From NCBI GenBank assembly GCA_964566735.1, contig CAZMJB010000001.1:21516-85515 (forward strand): a stretch of DNA of 64,000 bases. Direction: 5' to 3'. Shown in pieces: positions 1,715 to 51,615 of this stretch. The DNA comes from an uncultured Candidatus Saccharibacteria bacterium (GTDB lineage: Bacteria; Patescibacteriota; Saccharimonadia; Saccharimonadales; Saccharimonadaceae). Position numbers and translations under genes: made by a program. Numbering within the stretch: position 1 is the first letter of the stretch; every line of letters begins with the position of its first letter. The notes under the pieces are model-generated. The model did no database searches. It had not been told where the DNA came from and saw only the letters and a list, made by a program, of their open reading frames with translations.

Positions 1715-2236
1715 CTAAGCGTCAGCATGACGAGCTTCAACTTCAGCTTGCTTTGCAGCAAGTTCAGCGTCTTCAGCAGCCTTTTCAGCAGCCTTCTCTT
1801 CAGCAGCAACCTTTGCTTCTTCCTTAAGACGAGCAGCTTCTTCTTCAGCATGGGTGTCAACAATGCTGTTTACACCTTCGCGGTCAAAGTTAACAGCCTT
1901 AAGGCGAGCACTCTTACCGCTACGGTTACGTAGGAATGAAAGGTAATTACGGCGAACCTTAGAACGACGAGTGATTTCAATCTTTTCTACGAGTGGGCTG
2001 TGAAGAAGGAAGCTCTTCTCAACACCGATACCGCTGGCGATCTTACGAACAGTAATACGCGCGGTGTGCGACTTAGCACGGTCTACACGGATAACAACGC
2101 CTTCAAAAACCTGAATACGCTCTTTGTTACCTTCTTTAATTTTCTGGTGAACACGGACGGTATCACCACTCTTTGCGTCAACAACAGCAGCCTTGCGTTG
2201 CTCGTTGTTCACTTTTTGGATAAGTGCAAAACTCAT
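1715..2236 (-). CDS. rplS: 50S ribosomal protein L19 with an Ala/Glu/Lys-rich C-terminal tail
   Basis: L19 core motifs are present: GDTVRVHQKIKEGNKERIQVFEGVVI, LHSPLVEKIEI and RRSKVRRNYLSFLRNR. The last ~55 aa are low complexity. Confidence 0.9.
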   Translation of the reverse strand: MSFALIQKVNNEQRKAAVVDAKSGDTVRVHQKIKEGNKERIQVFEGVVIRVDRAKSHTARITVRKIASGIGVEKSFLLHSPLVEKIEITRRSKVRRNYLSFLRNRSGKSARLKAVNFDREGVNSIVDTHAEEEAARLKEEAKVAAEEKAAEKAAEDAELAAKQAEVEARHADA

Positions 2237-2415: not shown

Positions 2416-3363
2416 CTAGAGTCCAGCAGGCCCAAATGATGTCGAAGCATGTTCTGCTGCATTCCACGTCCAACCCGAACTACTTCCGTCTCCATACCCC
2501 ACAGGTATCGAATCAGCGCTCAACATTGCACCATCAAATTCAACAAAATCGCCTGCGACCAAACCCGAACCCATGCCATAGACGGCAAATGTCAACCTGT
2601 CCATATTTGGCGTCACAGGAATCGACAGTGTTAAGCGCGTCCACGTATTCGGCACGAGTGCCACAAGCGACCCCGCCACCGTTCCAATATTCGTACTCGA
2701 CGAATTTCGTCTTTCGGCATGAATCCGGTACGACACTGCTTTGCTCGAACGCACCCAAATAGCAAGTTGGTATTCTGATGTCGAATTTAGCCCTGTTACT
2801 TGAGTATAAGGACCAAAATTACTTAAAGACCCATCAGCAGAAAGTGCGTAACGAAACGTTCGATCACCCACCTGGCCGCCGCTTGTCGGATTCGAAGAAG
2901 AGCCTGCAGCGCCGCCTATAAGTCCAGGCGTATTCCATGTCCAGCCCGACCAACCAGTTTCAAAACTCGGATTTATGACCATGTTGGTCGTACAAACAGC
3001 TCTGGTTGGACTCGCATTTTCTGAAGACGTAGCGAAAGAAATATCAGACTTTGAAGTGTTCGTTGCCGAAACGCAGTAGTCTGCATTGTCTGCCGATACA
3101 AGGTATCGATAGGTCGTGTCGGCGCTACTTACAAGACCGGTCTCGGTCTCAAATGCGGCAATACTTGGGTAAGCCCCGGCCGTCACACGTTTCGTCGCTA
3201 GTATTTTTCCCGCCTGGGATGCGGAAGACTGCGTCGCTGATTCGCGTGCACGATTTTGTATGCCATTATACGCCACGATGGTAATGGCGGCTAGAATTGC
3301 GATCACAACCACAACGATAAGGAGTTCGACAATCGTAAAGGCCTTAGATGTTGCACTGTTCAT
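2416..3363 (-). CDS. Type IV pilin-like protein with a C-terminal jelly-roll/CBM-like module
   Basis: The N-terminus KAFTIVELLIVVVVIAILAAITIVAYNG is a prepilin cleavage/methylation motif followed by a hydrophobic helix. The C-terminal half opens with NPSFETGWSGWTW, a CBM4/9-like signature. Confidence 0.8.
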   Translation of the reverse strand: MNSATSKAFTIVELLIVVVVIAILAAITIVAYNGIQNRARESATQSSASQAGKILATKRVTAGAYPSIAAFETETGLVSSADTTYRYLVSADNADYCVSATNTSKSDISFATSSENASPTRAVCTTNMVINPSFETGWSGWTWNTPGLIGGAAGSSSNPTSGGQVGDRTFRYALSADGSLSNFGPYTQVTGLNSTSEYQLAIWVRSSKAVSYRIHAERRNSSSTNIGTVAGSLVALVPNTWTRLTLSIPVTPNMDRLTFAVYGMGSGLVAGDFVEFDGAMLSADSIPVGYGDGSSSGWTWNAAEHASTSFGPAGL

Positions 3364-5549: not shown

Positions 5550-6467
5550 TTACTGGAGCGGCGTAGGACCAATCGAAGCAGAGGCGTTTTGGGTTCCCGC
5601 CCAAGTCCAGGCTGAATTGTTTCCATCGTTATACACCGAAGCCGATGAACCTTCATCAATCATAGCTCCATCTACATAAAACGTATGCGCTACAGCCGTG
5701 CTATTTCTAAGGACAATGTCTGCCGAAGCAGCGGTCGCACCCATGGTGCGCGTCGCGGTGAGTCGCTGCCACGAGCCGTTTGCGGTAATAGTGGCTGAGT
5801 TAGTACGGGCACCTATTAGTGTGTTCGTAGCGTCCATTTCGCCGAGCTCTAGGCGCATTGTTTTTCCGGACTCACCCTTTACCCAAATTGAAGCAGTATA
5901 TGTGAGATTGGGTAGAACAGTCGCACGAGCCGTCGTATACACACCCTGATTAGCCGCAACACCGTTTGATACCGCCTGAAGTGAAGCTGTACCCGAATTA
6001 AACTCTGTTGTTACTCGCGTGAGTGTCGTTCCCGCCGTTCCCGCTGCCGCCCAGCCACTTGTATTCAGTTCAAAACTCGGGTTGAGTACGAGGTTTGCAG
6101 CACACCTACCCGCAACTGTTCCACTTGATTTATTTGTTACCGCCCAGGCTGTCTGGTGTTTTGTTGCTGAAATACAGTGAGCTCGTACGTTGGCCGTAGT
6201 GATAAAACGGTAATCGTAGGTAGTATCGGTATCATTTGTTATTCCTGCGTCATCTAACACGGCTGGGTATCCATCGCTATTGACGGCGGCATAGGCAAGC
6301 ACCTTCTTACTTGCCTGAGAAGCCGCAGATTGAACAGCGGAGTCTTTAGCGCGATTTGAAATACCGTTATAAGCAACGATAGTGATGGCAGCGAGTATCG
6401 CGATAACCACTACGACGATAAGAAGCTCGACAATCGTAAAACCTTGTTTGTTTACCCACCTGTTCAT
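5550..6467 (-). CDS. Type IV pilin-like protein with a C-terminal jelly-roll/CBM-like module (paralog of 2416-3363)
   Basis: The N-terminus is GFTIVELLIVVVVIAILAAITIVAYNG. The C-terminal half starts NPSFELNTSGWAAAG and ends like the first pilin (SAWTWAG...ASIGP). Confidence 0.8.
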   Translation of the reverse strand: MNRWVNKQGFTIVELLIVVVVIAILAAITIVAYNGISNRAKDSAVQSAASQASKKVLAYAAVNSDGYPAVLDDAGITNDTDTTYDYRFITTANVRAHCISATKHQTAWAVTNKSSGTVAGRCAANLVLNPSFELNTSGWAAAGTAGTTLTRVTTEFNSGTASLQAVSNGVAANQGVYTTARATVLPNLTYTASIWVKGESGKTMRLELGEMDATNTLIGARTNSATITANGSWQRLTATRTMGATAASADIVLRNSTAVAHTFYVDGAMIDEGSSASVYNDGNNSAWTWAGTQNASASIGPTPLQ

Positions 6468-45938: not shown

Positions 45939-46592
45939 CTATTCGGCTTTAAAAGAATTCTCTTCGCGCCACTTCGCGATTGCCGCGTGGTTACCACTTA
46001 AAAGTACCTCAGGTACCTTCATGTCGCGGAACTCAGCTGGCTTTGTGTACTGCGGGAACTCTAAAGTCTCACCATCAGAAAAGCTTTCAATTTCAGCGCT
46101 TGCCGCGCCGCCAAGTACACCCGGGATAAGCCGGACAATGCTATCAATAATCGTCATAGCCGGAAGCTCTCCGCCCGTAAGGACATAATCGCCCACACTT
46201 ACCTGCTCATCAACCAATGTCACGATGCGCTCATCGTAGCCTTCATAGCGGCCACAAATAAAAATGTAGCCATGATCTGCGTCTGCATAGCTTTGCGCGG
46301 TCGCCTGCTTCCAGCGCTGGCCTCGTGGCGTCATGAGGAGCACCTTTGCTGTTGGGTCATTTGCTTTTGCAGCTTCGACGGCAGCAAATAGCGGCTCGGG
46401 CTTCAGAAGCATGCCATCACCACCACCATACGGCGTGTCGTCTACTTGCTGGCGCGGGCCAATACCATAATCGCGTAAATTAATAAGTCCAAACTCAACA
46501 GCGCCCTGGTTCTGGGCTTTCCACATCATTGAGCTATTCAGCACGCCTTCAAACATTTCCGGAAATAGCGTGACTACTTGGATTTTCTTCAT
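45939..46592 (-). CDS. trmD: tRNA (guanine37-N1)-methyltransferase
   Basis: 217 aa with DDTPYGGGDGMLL and FICGRYEGYDERI. Confidence 0.95.
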   Translation of the reverse strand: MKKIQVVTLFPEMFEGVLNSSMMWKAQNQGAVEFGLINLRDYGIGPRQQVDDTPYGGGDGMLLKPEPLFAAVEAAKANDPTAKVLLMTPRGQRWKQATAQSYADADHGYIFICGRYEGYDERIVTLVDEQVSVGDYVLTGGELPAMTIIDSIVRLIPGVLGGAASAEIESFSDGETLEFPQYTKPAEFRDMKVPEVLLSGNHAAIAKWREENSFKAE

Positions 46593-46599
46593 CTGTACT

Positions 46600-46628
46600 A
46601 GTGTACGCTACATTGATATTTTTGTAAA
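46600..46628 (-). promoter_or_regulatory. Putative leaderless-type trmD promoter, TTTACA-17-TACACT, with the -10 ending 7 nt before the ATG
   Basis: On the minus strand TTTACA is at 46628-46623 and TACACT at 46605-46600, with the ATG at 46592. It overlaps the divergent promoter at 46613-46641. Confidence 0.5.
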
Positions 46629-46641
46629 TATGTGCTATAAT
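46613..46641 (+). promoter_or_regulatory. Near-consensus promoter, TTGATA-17-TGc-TATAAT
   Basis: TTGATA is at 46613-46618, followed by an exactly 17-nt spacer ending in TGC, and TATAAT at 46636-46641. Confidence 0.6.
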
Positions 46642-46673
46642 ATATGTATCAGTCCCCTACGACAGGAGTTGTC

Positions 46674-46931
46674 ATGAGTTCTGCAAGCACCGTGCTGATC
46701 GGTTTCTACACCGTTTCGGCCGAGTACATCGAGGCGAGCGACATCGTCCACACCGAGGCCGTCGAGGACAGCACCCCCGACATGCCGCCCACCTACAAGA
46801 TCATCTACACCCTCGAGGGATCCGACGAGGAGAGGATCGCATGGGTGGACCTGACGTGGTTCAACACCCTGAAGCCGTACGTGCTGCGCTACAGGGCTCG
46901 CCTCAACGCCGAAGCTGACGCCCTCGGCTGA
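46674..46931 (+). CDS. High-GC3 acidic hypothetical protein (85 aa), apparently xenologous
   Basis: An AGGAG RBS lies 5 nt before the ATG at 46674. The ORF-track start at 46644 falls at the predicted TSS. By my hand count about 75 of 85 codons end in G/C, unlike the neighbours. I recognise no family. Confidence 0.6.
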   Translation: MSSASTVLIGFYTVSAEYIEASDIVHTEAVEDSTPDMPPTYKIIYTLEGSDEERIAWVDLTWFNTLKPYVLRYRARLNAEADALG

Positions 46932-47097
46932 CCACCATCGCCGATACCGTCGGCAACGCCCCCAACGAAGAAAGTCTGCTGTTGAGCTGCAATACGCACT
47001 CCGGCTTGTCGCTCTTCAGGGGGCTTTCTTTATTGGGTCAAAAATTGCATTTATGATTTAAAGTATCCGCGCCCCGGGCTTTTCTATTCATAACGAT

Positions 47098-47135
47098 GTA
47101 TATAAACAAATAGACACCCTGAACGGGGTGTCTAT
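47098..47135 (-). terminator. Intrinsic terminator after the KH-domain gene
   Basis: The minus strand reads TAGACACCC, loop cgttca, GGGTGTCTA followed by TTTGTTTATAT. Confidence 0.6.
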
Positions 47136-47222
47136 TATACACATAAGCTCTCAACAAAATGTGGTTTTGTCGCTCGCATGAGCTGTTCTCGCAGTTCAAA
47201 GTGTGTTCTGAACTGCTTGTGA

Positions 47223-47624
47223 TTATATATCAAGATCGTCGAGGTCTGCAAGCTCTTGGCGAGTCTTTTTTGTGTATTCAGAACTATTGTCCACAGCTTC
47301 ATCTGTTGGACTTTCCACAGCTTCTGGATCTGTGGAAACTTGAGCATCTTCACTACTAAGGGTAGCGCCGGTTTGGCCATCGTTGTTTACAATCTTCAAG
47401 TTGTAGCGTGCATCATTCTTGGTACCAAGTGCGCGAAGAAGTGTACGGAGGCTCTGCGCGGTTACCCCGCGCTTACCAATGACACGTCCAAGGTCGTCTG
47501 GATTCACCGTAAGAGTAAGCAACACTCCCTTTTCGTCGATAACGCGGTCGACGACAACGTCGTCTGGATTTCCAACGACTGATTTTACGATATATTCTAT
47601 GAACTGCTGGTCTATGGTCGACAT
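47223..47624 (-). CDS. KH-domain RNA-binding protein (YlqC-like) with an acidic C-terminal tail
   Basis: The start is moved to MSTIDQQ, preceded by GAGGAGGGG. The KH motif VIGKRGVTAQSLRTLL is present. The gene occupies the usual position after rpsP. Confidence 0.85.
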   Translation of the reverse strand: MSTIDQQFIEYIVKSVVGNPDDVVVDRVIDEKGVLLTLTVNPDDLGRVIGKRGVTAQSLRTLLRALGTKNDARYNLKIVNNDGQTGATLSSEDAQVSTDPEAVESPTDEAVDNSSEYTKKTRQELADLDDLDI

Positions 47625-47729
47625 GTGGCCCCTCCTCGTGTCTCTGTCAAAGTATCGTACCTTTATTGTAGCATAGCGCTCTTTTTTGCCTACAATAAGC
47701 GTAAGCATTATTTTACCCCTTAGAGAGTA

Positions 47730-47758
47730 TTGACTTTTAAGCTATAAAGTGATATAAT
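47730..47758 (+). promoter_or_regulatory. Consensus-like promoter, TTGACT-17-TATAAT
   Basis: TTGACT is at 47730-47735, followed by an exactly 17-nt spacer, and TATAAT at 47753-47758. Confidence 0.6.
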
Positions 47759-47838
47759 TCAGCTCAACACTTTCTCTACTGGTAACAGTATGAGGTCGTG
47801 GAAGCAGTACCTGTCGGAAAAACTACGAAGGGACCATC

Positions 47839-48408
47839 TTGTCCAACAAGAACGACCGCACGCAGCGGCCGACCCAGAAGTACAGCGCCGCCGAGCTCAA
47901 GGAGCTGGCGGTGGAGGCGATCAAGATCATCGGCGATGCCACGGAGCCGGACGAGACCATCTCGTTCATCTCCCGGGAGACCCTGAAGATCTACATCGCG
48001 CTCCTCGGAGACGGGCGTCGGGCGAACGCCCGCAAGCACGCCGGCGTCGCCATGCAACAGATGCAGCAGAAGCTCAAGGCCGAGCGCTACCCGCACGCGA
48101 CCTGGCAGCGAGGCTGCGCCAAGGCGACCATCAACAGCGCGCTGGGCTACGCCCGCCGCGTGCTGAAGGGCAAGCTGCGTCACGAGGACGCGGTCGGCCT
48201 GATGAACCGCACCATCGAAGACCGCATCGCCAACCGCAAGGCCTTCGAGGAGAGCGGCGCCGGCTACGACGCGCGACGCCGTGCCAAGAGCGGCATCAAG
48301 ACGGAGCGCCCCTCCGCCCTCCAGGGTGGCCAGCGCTCGCGCAACACCCGCATGGAGCCGCACAAGCGCAACAAGCGGCACGCCGCGGCGTGGAGCGACG
48401 CCGCCTAG
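47839..48408 (+). CDS. High-GC3 basic hypothetical protein (189 aa, TTG start), apparently xenologous
   Basis: Among the overlapping ORFs in this GC-rich block, this is the frame I examined codon by codon and the only one whose translation is not Arg/Gly/Pro-dominated. The first 30 codons after the start all end in G or C (hand count). The C-terminal third is Arg/Lys-rich. I recognise no family. Confidence 0.6.
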   Translation: MSNKNDRTQRPTQKYSAAELKELAVEAIKIIGDATEPDETISFISRETLKIYIALLGDGRRANARKHAGVAMQQMQQKLKAERYPHATWQRGCAKATINSALGYARRVLKGKLRHEDAVGLMNRTIEDRIANRKAFEESGAGYDARRRAKSGIKTERPSALQGGQRSRNTRMEPHKRNKRHAAAWSDAA

Positions 48409-48455
48409 GCGACCACCGACAGGGAATCTCGATTCACCCCCCCGAGTCGAGCTAC

Positions 48456-48498
48456 AGCCCCCGGGACCCACGAGGTCCTGGGGGCTTCCCTCTTTTTA
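48456..48498 (+). terminator. Intrinsic terminator of the high-GC ORF
   Basis: AGCCCCCGGGACC, loop cacga, GGTCCTGGGGGCT followed by TCCCTCTTTTTA. Confidence 0.65.
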
Positions 48499-48510
48499 TA
48501 GACTTTTTAC

Positions 48511-48542
48511 TAATAAAAAAATCCCGCCGAGATGGCGGGATT
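48511..48542 (-). terminator. Intrinsic terminator after rpsP
   Basis: The minus strand reads AATCCCGCC, loop atctc, GGCGGGATT followed by TTTTTTATTA. Confidence 0.65.
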
Positions 48543-48560
48543 CATAACACGTGAAATAGA

Positions 48561-48941
48561 CTATTCAGCGCTTTCAGCAGGTGCTTCGGCTTCTTCTACA
48601 GGAGCTTCTTCAACTACTTCTTCCTTTGGTTGGTTCTTGCGGAGCTTTTCAGCGTTACGGATAGCTTTTTGCTTGTCGCTTGAAGCTTCTTTTACCCACT
48701 TAGGGAGTTTCACACCAGCTTCCTTGAGGAGCTTGGCAACACGAGGTGTTGGTTGCGCACCGTTGTCGAGGTACTTTTGCGCTACTTCAACTTGAACGTT
48801 AGCATCTTTAGTGTGTGGGTTGTAGCTTCCTACGTACGCAACAACACGACCGCTTGATGGGTGGCGTTGTGACTCTTGTACAGCGAGGCGGTAGGTTGGG
48901 TAACCGGCGCGTCCTACGCGTTGCAAACGAATTGCGAGCAT
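48561..48941 (-). CDS. rpsP: 30S ribosomal protein S16 with a C-terminal extension
   Basis: MLAIRLQRVGRAGYPTYRLAVQESQRHPSSGRVVAYVGSYNPH is the S16 core. A Lys/Glu/Ala-rich tail follows. Confidence 0.95.
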   Translation of the reverse strand: MLAIRLQRVGRAGYPTYRLAVQESQRHPSSGRVVAYVGSYNPHTKDANVQVEVAQKYLDNGAQPTPRVAKLLKEAGVKLPKWVKEASSDKQKAIRNAEKLRKNQPKEEVVEEAPVEEAEAPAESAE

Positions 48942-50749: not shown

Positions 50750-50774
50750 AAAAACGCCTGCTACTTAGCAAGCG
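50750..50774 (-). terminator. Intrinsic terminator overlapping the rpmF stop
   Basis: The minus strand reads CGCTTGCT, loop aagt, AGCAGGCG followed by TTTTT. Confidence 0.5.
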
Positions 50775-50910
50775 CCTTACCGGTTTCTTTGCGAGTTGTC
50801 TTAACCTTTACAGGTGACTTTCCGTTCACACGACGAGCAAGCGTCAGACGCAGGTGGCTGCGGCGGAGACCCGTCTTTCGTGGGCTACTCTGCTTCTTTG
50901 GTTGTGCCAT
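50761..50910 (-). CDS. rpmF: 50S ribosomal protein L32
   Basis: It is below the ORF-track size cut-off. Hand translation gives MAQPKKQSSPRKTGLRRSHLRLTLARRVNGKSPVKVKTTRKETGKALAK. The L32 N-terminal pattern MA.PK.K.S...RR.H is present, and an AAGGAG RBS sits upstream. Confidence 0.85.
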   Translation of the reverse strand: MAQPKKQSSPRKTGLRRSHLRLTLARRVNGKSPVKVKTTRKETGKALAK

Positions 50911-51066: not shown

Positions 51067-51615
51067 ATGCCAATAGAAGACGAATTTGACCCAAGTGAAG
51101 GAAGCCCCTTTATCAAAGGTGCCTCAACACTTGACCCAGAGATGGCGGCCAGGGCTCGGAGCCTCGTGCCCCCTGCGGCCGAAACGACGCAACCGACAAG
51201 AGAGCGCGTAAGCCTCACACCCCCTCCTCCACCTGTGGTCGAGCGTAATTCTGAACCCGAGAATATGCGCCTCAGGCTCACTCCTCGTGGACGACGCCTT
51301 GGCGCAGCGGTACTGGCGGGCGGCGTTACGGCCGCGGTTGCCGTAGGAGTTACGGCGGGAGCAAACGCTATCAATGCAGCGGAGACAGAAGCGCTTTTAT
51401 CATCACCGACTATTGAAGCGCACGTACAGCAAGGTGACGGACTGCAGAAACTTATTGAAGAGAATGTTCCAAGCGTCGCCTCTGGAGAGAGGGACTGGCG
51501 AGACGTTGCTGACGATATCAGTCAACTACCGCAGAATAGCGAGATTACCGAGCCGGGCTACGTCCTTATGCCAGGCGACACGGTCTCCATTCCTATTTAC
51601 GAATCAAATAAATAA
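51067..51615 (+). CDS. Membrane-anchored hypothetical protein
   Basis: 182 aa with a Pro-rich N-terminus and one TM helix (AAVLAGGVTAAVAVGVTAGA). The C-terminal domain ends YVLMPGDTVSIP. Confidence 0.55.
   Translation: MPIEDEFDPSEGSPFIKGASTLDPEMAARARSLVPPAAETTQPTRERVSLTPPPPPVVERNSEPENMRLRLTPRGRRLGAAVLAGGVTAAVAVGVTAGANAINAAETEALLSSPTIEAHVQQGDGLQKLIEENVPSVASGERDWRDVADDISQLPQNSEITEPGYVLMPGDTVSIPIYESNK

Follow-up and report, generated by a model that had tools for sequence, protein, structure and literature searches.

Two GC-rich antisense genes in the gaps of the rpsP-khpA-trmD cluster of an uncultured Saccharibacteria bacterium

Genes at the locus and their transcription signals

We analyzed a stretch of 64,000 nt of DNA from an uncultured Candidatus Saccharibacteria bacterium (GenBank assembly GCA_964566735.1, contig CAZMJB010000001.1, positions 21,516-85,515 of the forward strand), here called the window, and within it the region 45939-48941, in which the genes rpsP, khpA and trmD are separated by two GC-rich open reading frames (ORFs), orfA and orfB, on the opposite strand. 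All coordinates are positions within the window, which is part of the core chromosome of a Saccharibacteria (TM7) bacterium with a GC content of approximately 48%. The three cluster genes lie on the minus strand and were readily identified by their Pfam domains: rpsP, for ribosomal protein S16 (48561-48941; PF00886 Ribosomal_S16, E = 5.6e-12), khpA, for a KH-domain protein of 133 aa (47223-47624; PF13083 KH_KhpA-B, E = 1e-21), and trmD, for the tRNA m1G37 methyltransferase (45939-46592; PF01746 tRNA_m1G_MT, E = 1.5e-53). The true start of khpA is at 47624, and its product begins with MSTIDQQ. The three genes are contiguous and co-oriented, and are so likewise in 80 genome loci of relatives, wherever the contig reaches trmD.

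The gap between khpA and trmD holds orfA (46674-46931, plus strand), which encodes 85 aa from an ATG behind an AGGAG Shine-Dalgarno (SD) sequence, with a predicted isoelectric point (pI) of 4.3, a GC content of 0.61 and a GC content at third codon positions (GC3) of 0.87. It is followed by a structured terminator (GAAGAAAGTCTGCTG ... CAGGGGGCTTTCTTTATT; 46967-47034, plus strand), identified in a terminator scan and 92% identical over 72 nt to that of L001 (L001, L010 and so on are labels of relatives' loci). The gap between rpsP and khpA holds orfB (47839-48408, plus strand), which has a TTG start and encodes 189 aa with a pI of 10.4, at a GC of 0.69 and a GC3 of 0.947. The GC3 of the 27 minus-strand genes of the window is 0.468 ± 0.042 (maximum 0.553) and that of rpsP 0.41, so that orfA and orfB lie 9-11 standard deviations over the window genes. 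Their plus-strand orientation was ruled out as the cause, since the nine other plus-strand genes have a normal GC3 (0.39-0.50). The codons of orfA and orfB are like those of high-GC Actinobacteria (CTG/CTC, CGC, AAG, GAG, ATC and GCC), and no other ORF of 50 aa or more within the 64 kb combines a GC3 above 0.8 with a raised total GC. A 53-aa ORF at 1702-1863 has a GC3 of 0.81 at an ordinary GC of 0.48; most of it overlaps the rplS ORF, in another reading frame of that strand.

An earlier note on this DNA had described the arrangement correctly in these respects: each gap holds one high-GC3 ORF on the opposite strand, one product is acidic and the other strongly basic, rplS lies 44 kb away, and no RimM-like ORF is found between khpA and trmD. 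The GC3 values are 0.87 and 0.95, against a window average of 0.47, and rplS is at 1715-2236 (minus strand). The sole ORF wholly within the khpA-trmD gap is orfA, which has no Pfam match.

The period-3 GC signal is confined to one frame, GC reaches 0.90-0.97 at one codon position along orfB, and the ORFs in other frames of this region are shadows. The ratio of non-synonymous to synonymous substitution rates (dN/dS) of orfB is 0.40 between the window and L001 and 0.44 between L020 and L157, with 0.02-0.09 in the flanks. Within the orfB family the SD sequence, the TTG or GTG start, an N-terminus beginning with MSN and a basic tail are conserved, and the nucleotide sequences are unalignable. Both orfA and orfB are real protein-coding genes. 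Neither has a significant match in Pfam, PHROGs or NCBIfam, no Pfam match was found in the shadow frames searched (all five for orfB, three of five for orfA), and the window's own products have no exact match on record as encoded genes. An assembly artefact was ruled out, since the same arrangement recurs in seven independent Logan contigs and in many contigs from metagenome-assembled genomes (MAGs) and JGI.

Promoter-like and terminator-like sites were sought with a consensus scan and compared with shuffled sequences. This yielded eight promoter-like sites (3.1 ± 1.9 in shuffles) and nine terminator-like sites (3.8 ± 1.9 in shuffles). The two best promoter matches of the region, each with 11 of 12 consensus positions and a TG, lie directly upstream of orfA (TTGATA-17-TATAAT; 46613-46641, plus strand) and orfB (TTGACT-17-TATAAT; 47730-47758, plus strand). 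The former is identical in L001 and the latter is conserved in the orfB-family loci examined. On the minus strand, rpsP is predicted to end at an intrinsic terminator (48519-48543) that is convergent with that of orfB. The predicted khpA promoter (TAGGCA-16-TACAAT, 47665-47692, with the extended -10 element TGCTACAAT and an upstream TG) stands back to back with the orfB promoter, and a predicted khpA terminator lies at 47109-47136. The trmD promoter (TTTACA-17-TACACT; 46600-46628) ends 7 nt 5' of the ATG, and the trmD transcript in the window is probably leaderless. A -10-like hexamer 7-8 nt 5' of the trmD ATG is present in the window (region 46590-46628) and in relatives with a compact gap; trmD looks leaderless throughout the clade.

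The promoters of orfA and trmD overlap on opposite strands, with their -35 boxes 5 bp apart, and those of orfB and khpA are separated by 38 bp. Such divergent promoters could compete or be co-regulated. The earlier note had assigned rpsP, khpA and trmD their own promoters and terminators and had pointed to divergent promoter overlap. All elements that it had listed were recovered at the same place or a few bases away, and the overlap is real for orfA and trmD. The antisense interference that it had proposed is not indicated, because each unit is predicted to terminate before the convergent gene.

Gap content and gene families in relatives

We compared the cluster with 80 genome loci and 62 metagenome loci of relatives; a DNA pattern from the conserved 5' end of khpA served in locus scans. 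With the khpA product as query, the nearest genome records are Candidatus Microsaccharimonas and Saccharimonadaceae MAGs (82-93% identity). Both gaps have a bimodal length distribution in these loci: the rpsP-khpA gap measures either 54-160 bp or approximately 450-1900 bp, and the khpA-trmD gap either approximately 130-230 bp or approximately 480-1900 bp. In compact rpsP-khpA gaps the rpsP terminator hairpin is followed by the invariant TGCTACAAT of the khpA promoter, a -10 element that does not vary between relatives with and without orfB. Compact khpA-trmD gaps contain the khpA terminator, which is found in every relative of a 12-sequence alignment, followed by the -10 element 7-8 nt 5' of the trmD ATG. 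Between khpA and trmD, none of the 80 genome loci showed a RimM-like gene; the compact gaps, 130-160 bp in many relatives, are too short for one, and the ORFs of larger gaps were not screened one by one.

It had been proposed that two cassettes cut a conserved operon into three. The rpsP terminator, the promoter and terminator of khpA and the leaderless trmD promoter are all present in relatives whose gaps are empty. The predicted signals therefore indicate that no operon was cut and that the cluster was ancestrally three separately promoted and terminated genes in this clade, with the extra genes lodging between a terminator and the next promoter. The observation that the placement of the two ORFs in adjacent gaps is no coincidence was borne out: across the 592 kb examined from relatives' loci, 26 ORFs reach a GC3 of 0.8 or more, and 24 of them sit in the gaps between rnc, rpsP, khpA and trmD. 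The gap between rnc and rpsP varies as well, from 55 bp to 1.5 kb, and adds a third such site; further examples are found in L020, L032, L037, L059, L060, L067, L068, L080 and L086. In L010 it carries an antisense ORF of 275 aa with a GC3 of 0.88 (L010:1738-2565, minus strand), and elsewhere its ORFs run in either direction and have ordinary GC3.

When all gap ORFs were clustered and searched iteratively, the orfB family and a sister subfamily fell in the rpsP-khpA gap only and the orfA family in the khpA-trmD gap only. Every member of the families of these two gaps is antisense. The link between the orfB family and its sister subfamily (hhalign probability 87.6%, E = 3.5e-6) appeared with enlarged alignments; an earlier profile comparison of this type with small sets of rpsP-khpA gap families had been negative. 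In the sister subfamily the basic, disordered segment is N-terminal; in the orfB family it is C-terminal. A third family of the rpsP-khpA gap (L015, L100, L071 and others) has no profile similarity to either, and the khpA-trmD gap holds at least three further families without profile similarity.

The earlier note had raised the possibility that the two ORFs form a two-gene module and had suggested examining whether they co-vary. The orfB family occurs without the orfA family in L010, L020 and L141, which have a compact khpA-trmD gap, and in L017, which has an unrelated ORF there. The orfA family occurs without the orfB family in L008 and L014 (compact rpsP-khpA gap), in L015 (third family) and in L027. 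Only the window and L001 carry both. The idea of a module fails because the families occur without each other in relatives, an outcome that the note itself had named as refuting. Moreover, orfA and orfB are separated by khpA, each with its own predicted promoter and terminator, and are not co-transcribed by prediction. On this distribution they are independent accessory genes.

Searches for a donor lineage found none. Among 5.8 billion proteins an orfB-type search gave one and then five matches, and a search with orfA found nothing beyond the query itself. The orfB family profile matched 12 of 1.84 billion protein representatives, all of 160-190 aa, mostly with an MSN(T/K)(E/D) N-terminus and a basic tail usually ending in ...RRKAA, and located between khpA and rpsP wherever the flanking genes are identifiable. 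One family member is annotated merely as "hypothetical protein" in one source. No homologue of orfA or orfB was detected in 50,697 phage genomes (tblastn), none in any other context among the 1.84 billion representatives or these phage genomes, and none from a donor lineage in the protein-level and phage-genome searches. The family is old within the clade: members that share 22-28% identity are found at one and the same site, in genomes with khpA sequences 83-88% identical. Judged by these searches, the orfA and orfB families are restricted to one Saccharibacteria (Saccharimonadaceae/Microsaccharimonas-like) clade and are long-standing residents of the gaps. That they were recent foreign insertions is thus not upheld: no donor was found, the families are clade-restricted and GC3 is unchanged between orthologues. 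In the literature, nothing relevant was found that describes GC-rich hypervariable genes in Saccharibacteria.

The orfB transcript and the turnover of coding regions

The RNA analysis comprised folding and RNAalifold comparison of 14 full-length orfB-family mRNAs (630-730 nt). All 14 transcripts follow a TTGACT-17-TATAAT promoter and begin with a 5'-terminal hairpin whose sequence varies and whose stem is kept. Approximately 30 nt 5' of the start stands a 5' box, (G)UACCUGUCAG, followed by a GGAAGG-type SD sequence and a UUG or GUG start codon. A 3' box, CUGACAGGGAA, approximately 10 nt 3' of the stop, is the reverse complement of the 5' box. Beyond it lie a small hairpin and a GC-rich terminator ending in GGGGGCUUCCCUCUUUU. 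In the window, the 5' untranslated region (UTR) of orfB (47765-47838) contains the terminal hairpin P1 (47768-47800), the 5' box CCTGTCGG (47810-47817) and the SD sequence GAAGGGA (47827-47833). The 3'UTR (48416-48498) contains the 3' box CCGACAGG (48416-48423), hairpin P3 (48428-48451) and the GC-rich terminator with its tail, GGGGGCTTCCCTCTTTT (48456-48498).

The boxes of the window represent a matched double change relative to the CCTGTCAG and CTGACAGG of most members. The 8-mers are exact complements in 11 of the 14 mRNAs, and complementarity is conserved in all 14. The long-range box helix forms in the minimum-energy fold of every one of the full-length mRNAs, with a pair probability of at least 0.93 in 12, 0.65 in L088 and 0.33 in the window. 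RNAalifold retrieved an 8-bp box helix with one compensatory change from AU to GC (window and L001) and one U-G wobble, the other pairs being invariant; compensatory changes are numerous in hairpin P3 and in the terminator. In the sister subfamily, a helix of unrelated sequence and the same topology, 13-16 bp long, joins the SD/start region to the bases directly following the stop codon (probability 0.4-0.98). Conserved complementary boxes and a 5' hairpin around a hypervariable ORF are new here. A permissive Rfam scan yielded matches below threshold only. One of them, to the actinobacterial 6C RNA at 48423-48490 on the plus strand (28.7 bits against a gathering score of 47, E = 0.31), is probably due to chance; it is caused by the C-rich loop of the orfB 3' hairpin, and the loops of other members differ.

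Coding regions appear to be replaced within a conserved frame. In L088, nucleotide identity of the flanks is 85% and amino-acid identity 90-94%. Conservation extends to the promoter, the start, the 3'UTR and a portion of the 5'UTR, and the ORF (GC3 0.91) is unalignable as DNA and detectable only by profile. Between L020 and L157, khpA is 100% identical with a synonymous divergence (dS) of 0.04, and the ORF has a dS of 0.18 and a non-synonymous divergence (dN) of 0.08. For orfA and its counterpart in L001, the promoters are identical and the 3'UTRs 92% identical, the proteins share 35% identity and the ORFs cannot be aligned as DNA. Saccharibacteria have been reported to be naturally competent. 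Most likely, recombination in the conserved flanks and UTRs swaps alleles that are old and divergent. A diversity-generating retroelement was ruled out, as there are no template and variable repeats, the variation spans the whole ORF, and the Avd-like Foldseek matches have E-values of approximately 2: no repeat of at least 28 nt involves orfA or orfB, save one chance-level inverted match of 75%, and there is no reverse transcriptase among the neighbours examined.

The extreme GC3 does not fade with divergence. That of orfB is 0.947 in both the window and L001, at a dS of 0.43-2.4 in the flanks. Of the codons for identical residues in these two orfB genes, 15% differ at the third position, and the synonymous changes comprise 7 from weak to strong, 5 from strong to weak and 11 from strong to strong. 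Equal GC3 between orthologues and balanced changes therefore indicate a composition at equilibrium, without decay. Through deep splits of the family GC3 stays at 0.83-0.97. On this evidence, extreme GC3 is a maintained equilibrium and not the fading scar of a recent transfer.

With respect to the proteins, an AlphaFold2 model of the orfB product has a confidence (pLDDT) of 72 and predicts a helical bundle over residues 17-140 (mostly 75-95) and a disordered, Arg/Lys-rich tail. TetR, Bcl-2 and Avd-like helical bundles were rejected as relatives, as their Foldseek matches were insignificant (E of approximately 1-2). The single-sequence model of the orfA product (pLDDT 52.7) was too poor for a structure search. 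Most orfB-family proteins end in ...RR(K/R)AA, that of the window in ...WSDAA (48370-48405), and members of the sister subfamily mostly in ...(E/Q)L(V/T/A)xA. We take the ...RRKAA and ...ELVxA termini to resemble ClpX recognition signals. Hypervariability, strong predicted promoters and charge suggest roles in conflict or host interaction. As a guess, orfB might encode a basic nucleic-acid-binding or exported protein and orfA a small acidic one, acting as conflict or host-interaction factors.

Several other features of the window were recorded. Its housekeeping genes near the cluster include dnaE, uvrB, pheT, ligA, relA, a pilB-type ATPase gene, leuS, nusB, a NUDIX gene and rnc, and two tRNAs are its sole Rfam matches at gathering threshold. 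Directly 3' of the khpA stop lies an element of approximately 85 nt (47137-47222, minus strand; AGCAGUUCA...UGAACUGCGAGA...GCUCAUGCGAGCGAC...UUGUUGAGAGCUUAUGUGUAUAA), upstream of the khpA terminator, which is strongly conserved in all 12 aligned relatives, among them compact-gap genomes and genomes of 40% GC. Its predicted hairpins show hardly any covariation, and Rfam gave no match to it; it may represent a small RNA or an element of the 3'UTR. Another plus-strand gene amid minus-strand genes (51067-51615), between rpmF (50761-50910) and leuS, encodes a Pro/Ala-rich product of 182 aa with one hydrophobic segment and no Pfam match. Its local GC peak (0.62-0.67) arises from codon positions 1 and 2 at a GC3 of 0.50, and it is thus not of the orfA/orfB kind. 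Lastly, a direct repeat of 128 nt with 73% identity (3212-3339 and 6313-6440, 3.1 kb apart) lies in or beside a pilin-like gene with N_methyl and CBM_4_9 domains (2416-3363) and an ORF at 5550-6467; its copies are probably paralogous gene segments.

Interpretation, rival explanations and comparison with known systems

The arrangement is clearly non-random; the analysis gives no support to the view that the two ORFs are a recent, foreign and cooperating pair whose arrival split an operon. As a whole, we favor with some confidence the explanation that orfA and orfB are independent, position-locked accessory genes with fast allele turnover and a maintained GC3, and that orfB has in addition an RNA frame. 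Each gene would form a monocistronic unit complete in itself, comprising a strong sigma-70 promoter, a structured UTR and a terminator of its own, placed antisense in a terminator-to-promoter gap of an already split cluster that lacks rimM and has rplS elsewhere. The coding regions would be swapped via homologous recombination in the conserved flanks and UTRs, and the promoter, UTRs and terminator stay conserved. The orfB mRNA would be framed by its 5'-terminal hairpin and by the long-range UTR helix, which encloses the SD sequence and the entire ORF; by analogy with the icaR, hbs and hok mRNAs, this frame may stabilize the transcript and gate translation. In the sister subfamily, the predicted helix would directly cover the SD sequence and the start codon.

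A number of points weigh against this explanation. All promoters, terminators and RNA folds are predictions. The helix of the window is only 8 bp long, its predicted probability of 0.33 is the lowest of the 14, and it stops 9 nt short of the SD sequence, which it does not cover. The boxes are nearly invariant, and their covariation consists of one double change, probably a single event, and one wobble. With synonymous-codon shuffles, excess mRNA stability was observed in two of five members (z of -3.3 and -4.1, against -0.55 to -1.3), and no convincing 5'-3' pairing was found in the orfA mRNA. The dN/dS of orfA against L001 is approximately 1 at 35% identity, so that it is family conservation that shows constraint on it, and the orfB model has no Foldseek match with E < 1e-3 in PDB or BFVD. 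The GC3 of approximately 0.95 may be kept by selection on RNA, by biased gene conversion or by repeated import.

Two of the rival explanations trace the GC-richness to a donor. On the reading that follows the earlier note, two foreign high-GC genes, derived from an actinobacterial host or its phage, were inserted recently and independently, split the operon and would act together as a binder-antagonist or effector pair. Actinobacteria-type codon usage, a GC3 that is 9-11 standard deviations high and the opposite charges of the two proteins speak for this, as does the fact that the cultured relatives are epibionts of high-GC Actinobacteria. We nevertheless judge it very unlikely: no homologue was found outside the Saccharibacteria gaps in the 1.84 billion representatives and 50,697 phage genomes, the family is old in the clade (22-28% identity at the same position, with khpA at 83-88%), GC3 is not ameliorating, relatives with empty gaps already have the split operon, and relatives carry one ORF without the other. 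The insertions could also be ancient, with host DNA captured by natural transformation and the ORFs representing domesticated, diverged actinobacterial fragments that inherited their GC-richness. This would fit the host-like codon usage, and a shared kind of donor would explain why, from one lineage to another, the same gaps house several families that are unrelated and have raised GC3. Inherited GC should, however, decay at the synonymous rate of the flanks (dS 0.4-2.4), and GC3 remains at 0.83-0.97; no remnant domain was found in the reading frames searched (three of the five shadow frames for orfA), nor any donor homologue. We consider such a capture unlikely, and it is still the least improbable of the rivals.

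The remaining alternatives concern the boxes and the nature of the ORFs. If the inverted 8-bp boxes were recombinase or invertase sites, the ORF segment could be swapped or inverted as DNA within a fixed expression socket. The boxes do bracket the variable GC-rich segment, with conservation resuming outside; they are inverted copies of one site, kept matched by the double change in the window and L001, and alleles are replaced wholesale between closely related flanks. Against a role as DNA sites, the U-G wobble of one member matters for RNA, the longer complementarity of the sister subfamily includes the SD sequence and start and fits translation control, all members of the rpsP-khpA and khpA-trmD gap families have the same antisense orientation, no recombinase lies in or beside the gaps (the neighbours with Pfam matches are housekeeping genes), and 8 bp is short for such a site. 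We think this cassette exchange quite improbable. In a bolder variant of our own, the frame of promoter, 5' hairpin, closing helix and terminator would be a dedicated socket for hypervariable genes, kept in the codon dialect of a high-GC actinobacterial host because the product is directed at that host, either as an effector exported by its basic, disordered C-terminal tail or, more radically, as an unusually stable closed mRNA that is itself transferred. A specific mechanism of exchange or diversification would then renew the ORF between the boxes. We regard this as a long shot; if true, an episymbiont would here have a novel type of locus for interacting with its host. Least probable of all, and in our view scarcely tenable, is that the ORFs are non-coding, being structured RNA or DNA elements whose frames stay open because stops are few in GC-rich sequence. 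In favor of this, the 732-nt RNA is predicted to fold with great stability (-340 kcal/mol), two further frames of the orfB region contain long ORFs, and the 3'UTR has the weak, sub-threshold 6C RNA match (28.7 bits against 47). The GC of 0.90-0.97 at a single codon position, the dN/dS of 0.40-0.44, the confident helical core in the AlphaFold2 prediction and the conservation of the SD sequence, TTG/GTG start, MSN N-terminus and basic C-terminus in unalignable nucleotide sequences all argue for coding.

Saccharibacteria genomes are very small and their gene order is highly conserved, and sites of variable content are therefore likely to reflect dealings with host or phage. Three gaps around rpsP, khpA and trmD gather lineage-specific genes, antisense in the rpsP-khpA and khpA-trmD gaps. 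The locus further indicates that an extreme compositional island (GC3 0.95 in a genome of 48% GC) can be stable and inherited without a detectable donor, a warning that such islands are not to be read as recent horizontal transfer from composition alone. The upkeep of GC3 could be due to the structure of the RNA, to a recombination hot spot with biased gene conversion, or to a cause linked to the host. We know of almost no regulation described in this phylum, and a long-range 5'-3' UTR helix around a hypervariable ORF, with two independent sequence solutions, represents a testable post-transcriptional design.

Among known systems, minimal mobile elements, or replacement islets, of Neisseria are alternative cassettes at fixed sites in competent bacteria. 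The gaps studied here are similar in that a fixed site between conserved genes holds unrelated cassettes in different lineages, without mobility genes and with presumed recombination in the flanks. They differ in that the promoter, UTRs and terminator are conserved while the ORF is replaced, the genes are always antisense and the extreme GC3 persists. Like phage morons, orfA and orfB are autonomous promoter-gene-terminator units of deviant composition between the genes of a conserved cluster; unlike morons, they lie in the core chromosome (dnaE, uvrB, pheT, ligA and leuS are nearby) and not in a prophage, their families are inherited at one position across the clade, and they have no PHROG or phage matches. 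With a recently transferred high-GC islet they share the deviant composition, and neither donor homologues, in the protein-level and phage-genome searches, nor amelioration were found. The cluster itself resembles the canonical rpsP-(KH)-rimM-trmD-rplS operon in the order and shared orientation of rpsP, the KH gene and trmD; it differs in the absence of rimM, in the distance of 44 kb to rplS and in the predicted promoter and terminator of each gene, clade-wide and with or without an insert.

The orfB mRNA has its closest counterparts in transcripts that fold back on themselves. Fold-back (fbi) pairing occurs in the hok mRNA, and a 5'-terminal hairpin, as predicted for orfB, is shared with other stabilized Gram-positive mRNAs. 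Base pairing between the 5'UTR and 3'UTR has been described for icaR of Staphylococcus aureus (PMC3868564) and hbs of Bacillus subtilis (PMC5737220). As in these two, the orfB 3'UTR just past the stop is complementary to the 5'UTR, and the mRNA is predicted to close on itself; in the sister subfamily the 3' element would pair with the SD sequence and start codon, as in icaR. In contrast to icaR, hbs and hok, the helix of orfB in the window, predicted from sequence, has 8 bp, lies 9 nt upstream of the SD sequence and does not cover it. The proteins are unrelated, and the orfB frame surrounds a hypervariable, compositionally aberrant ORF, a combination not described for those systems.

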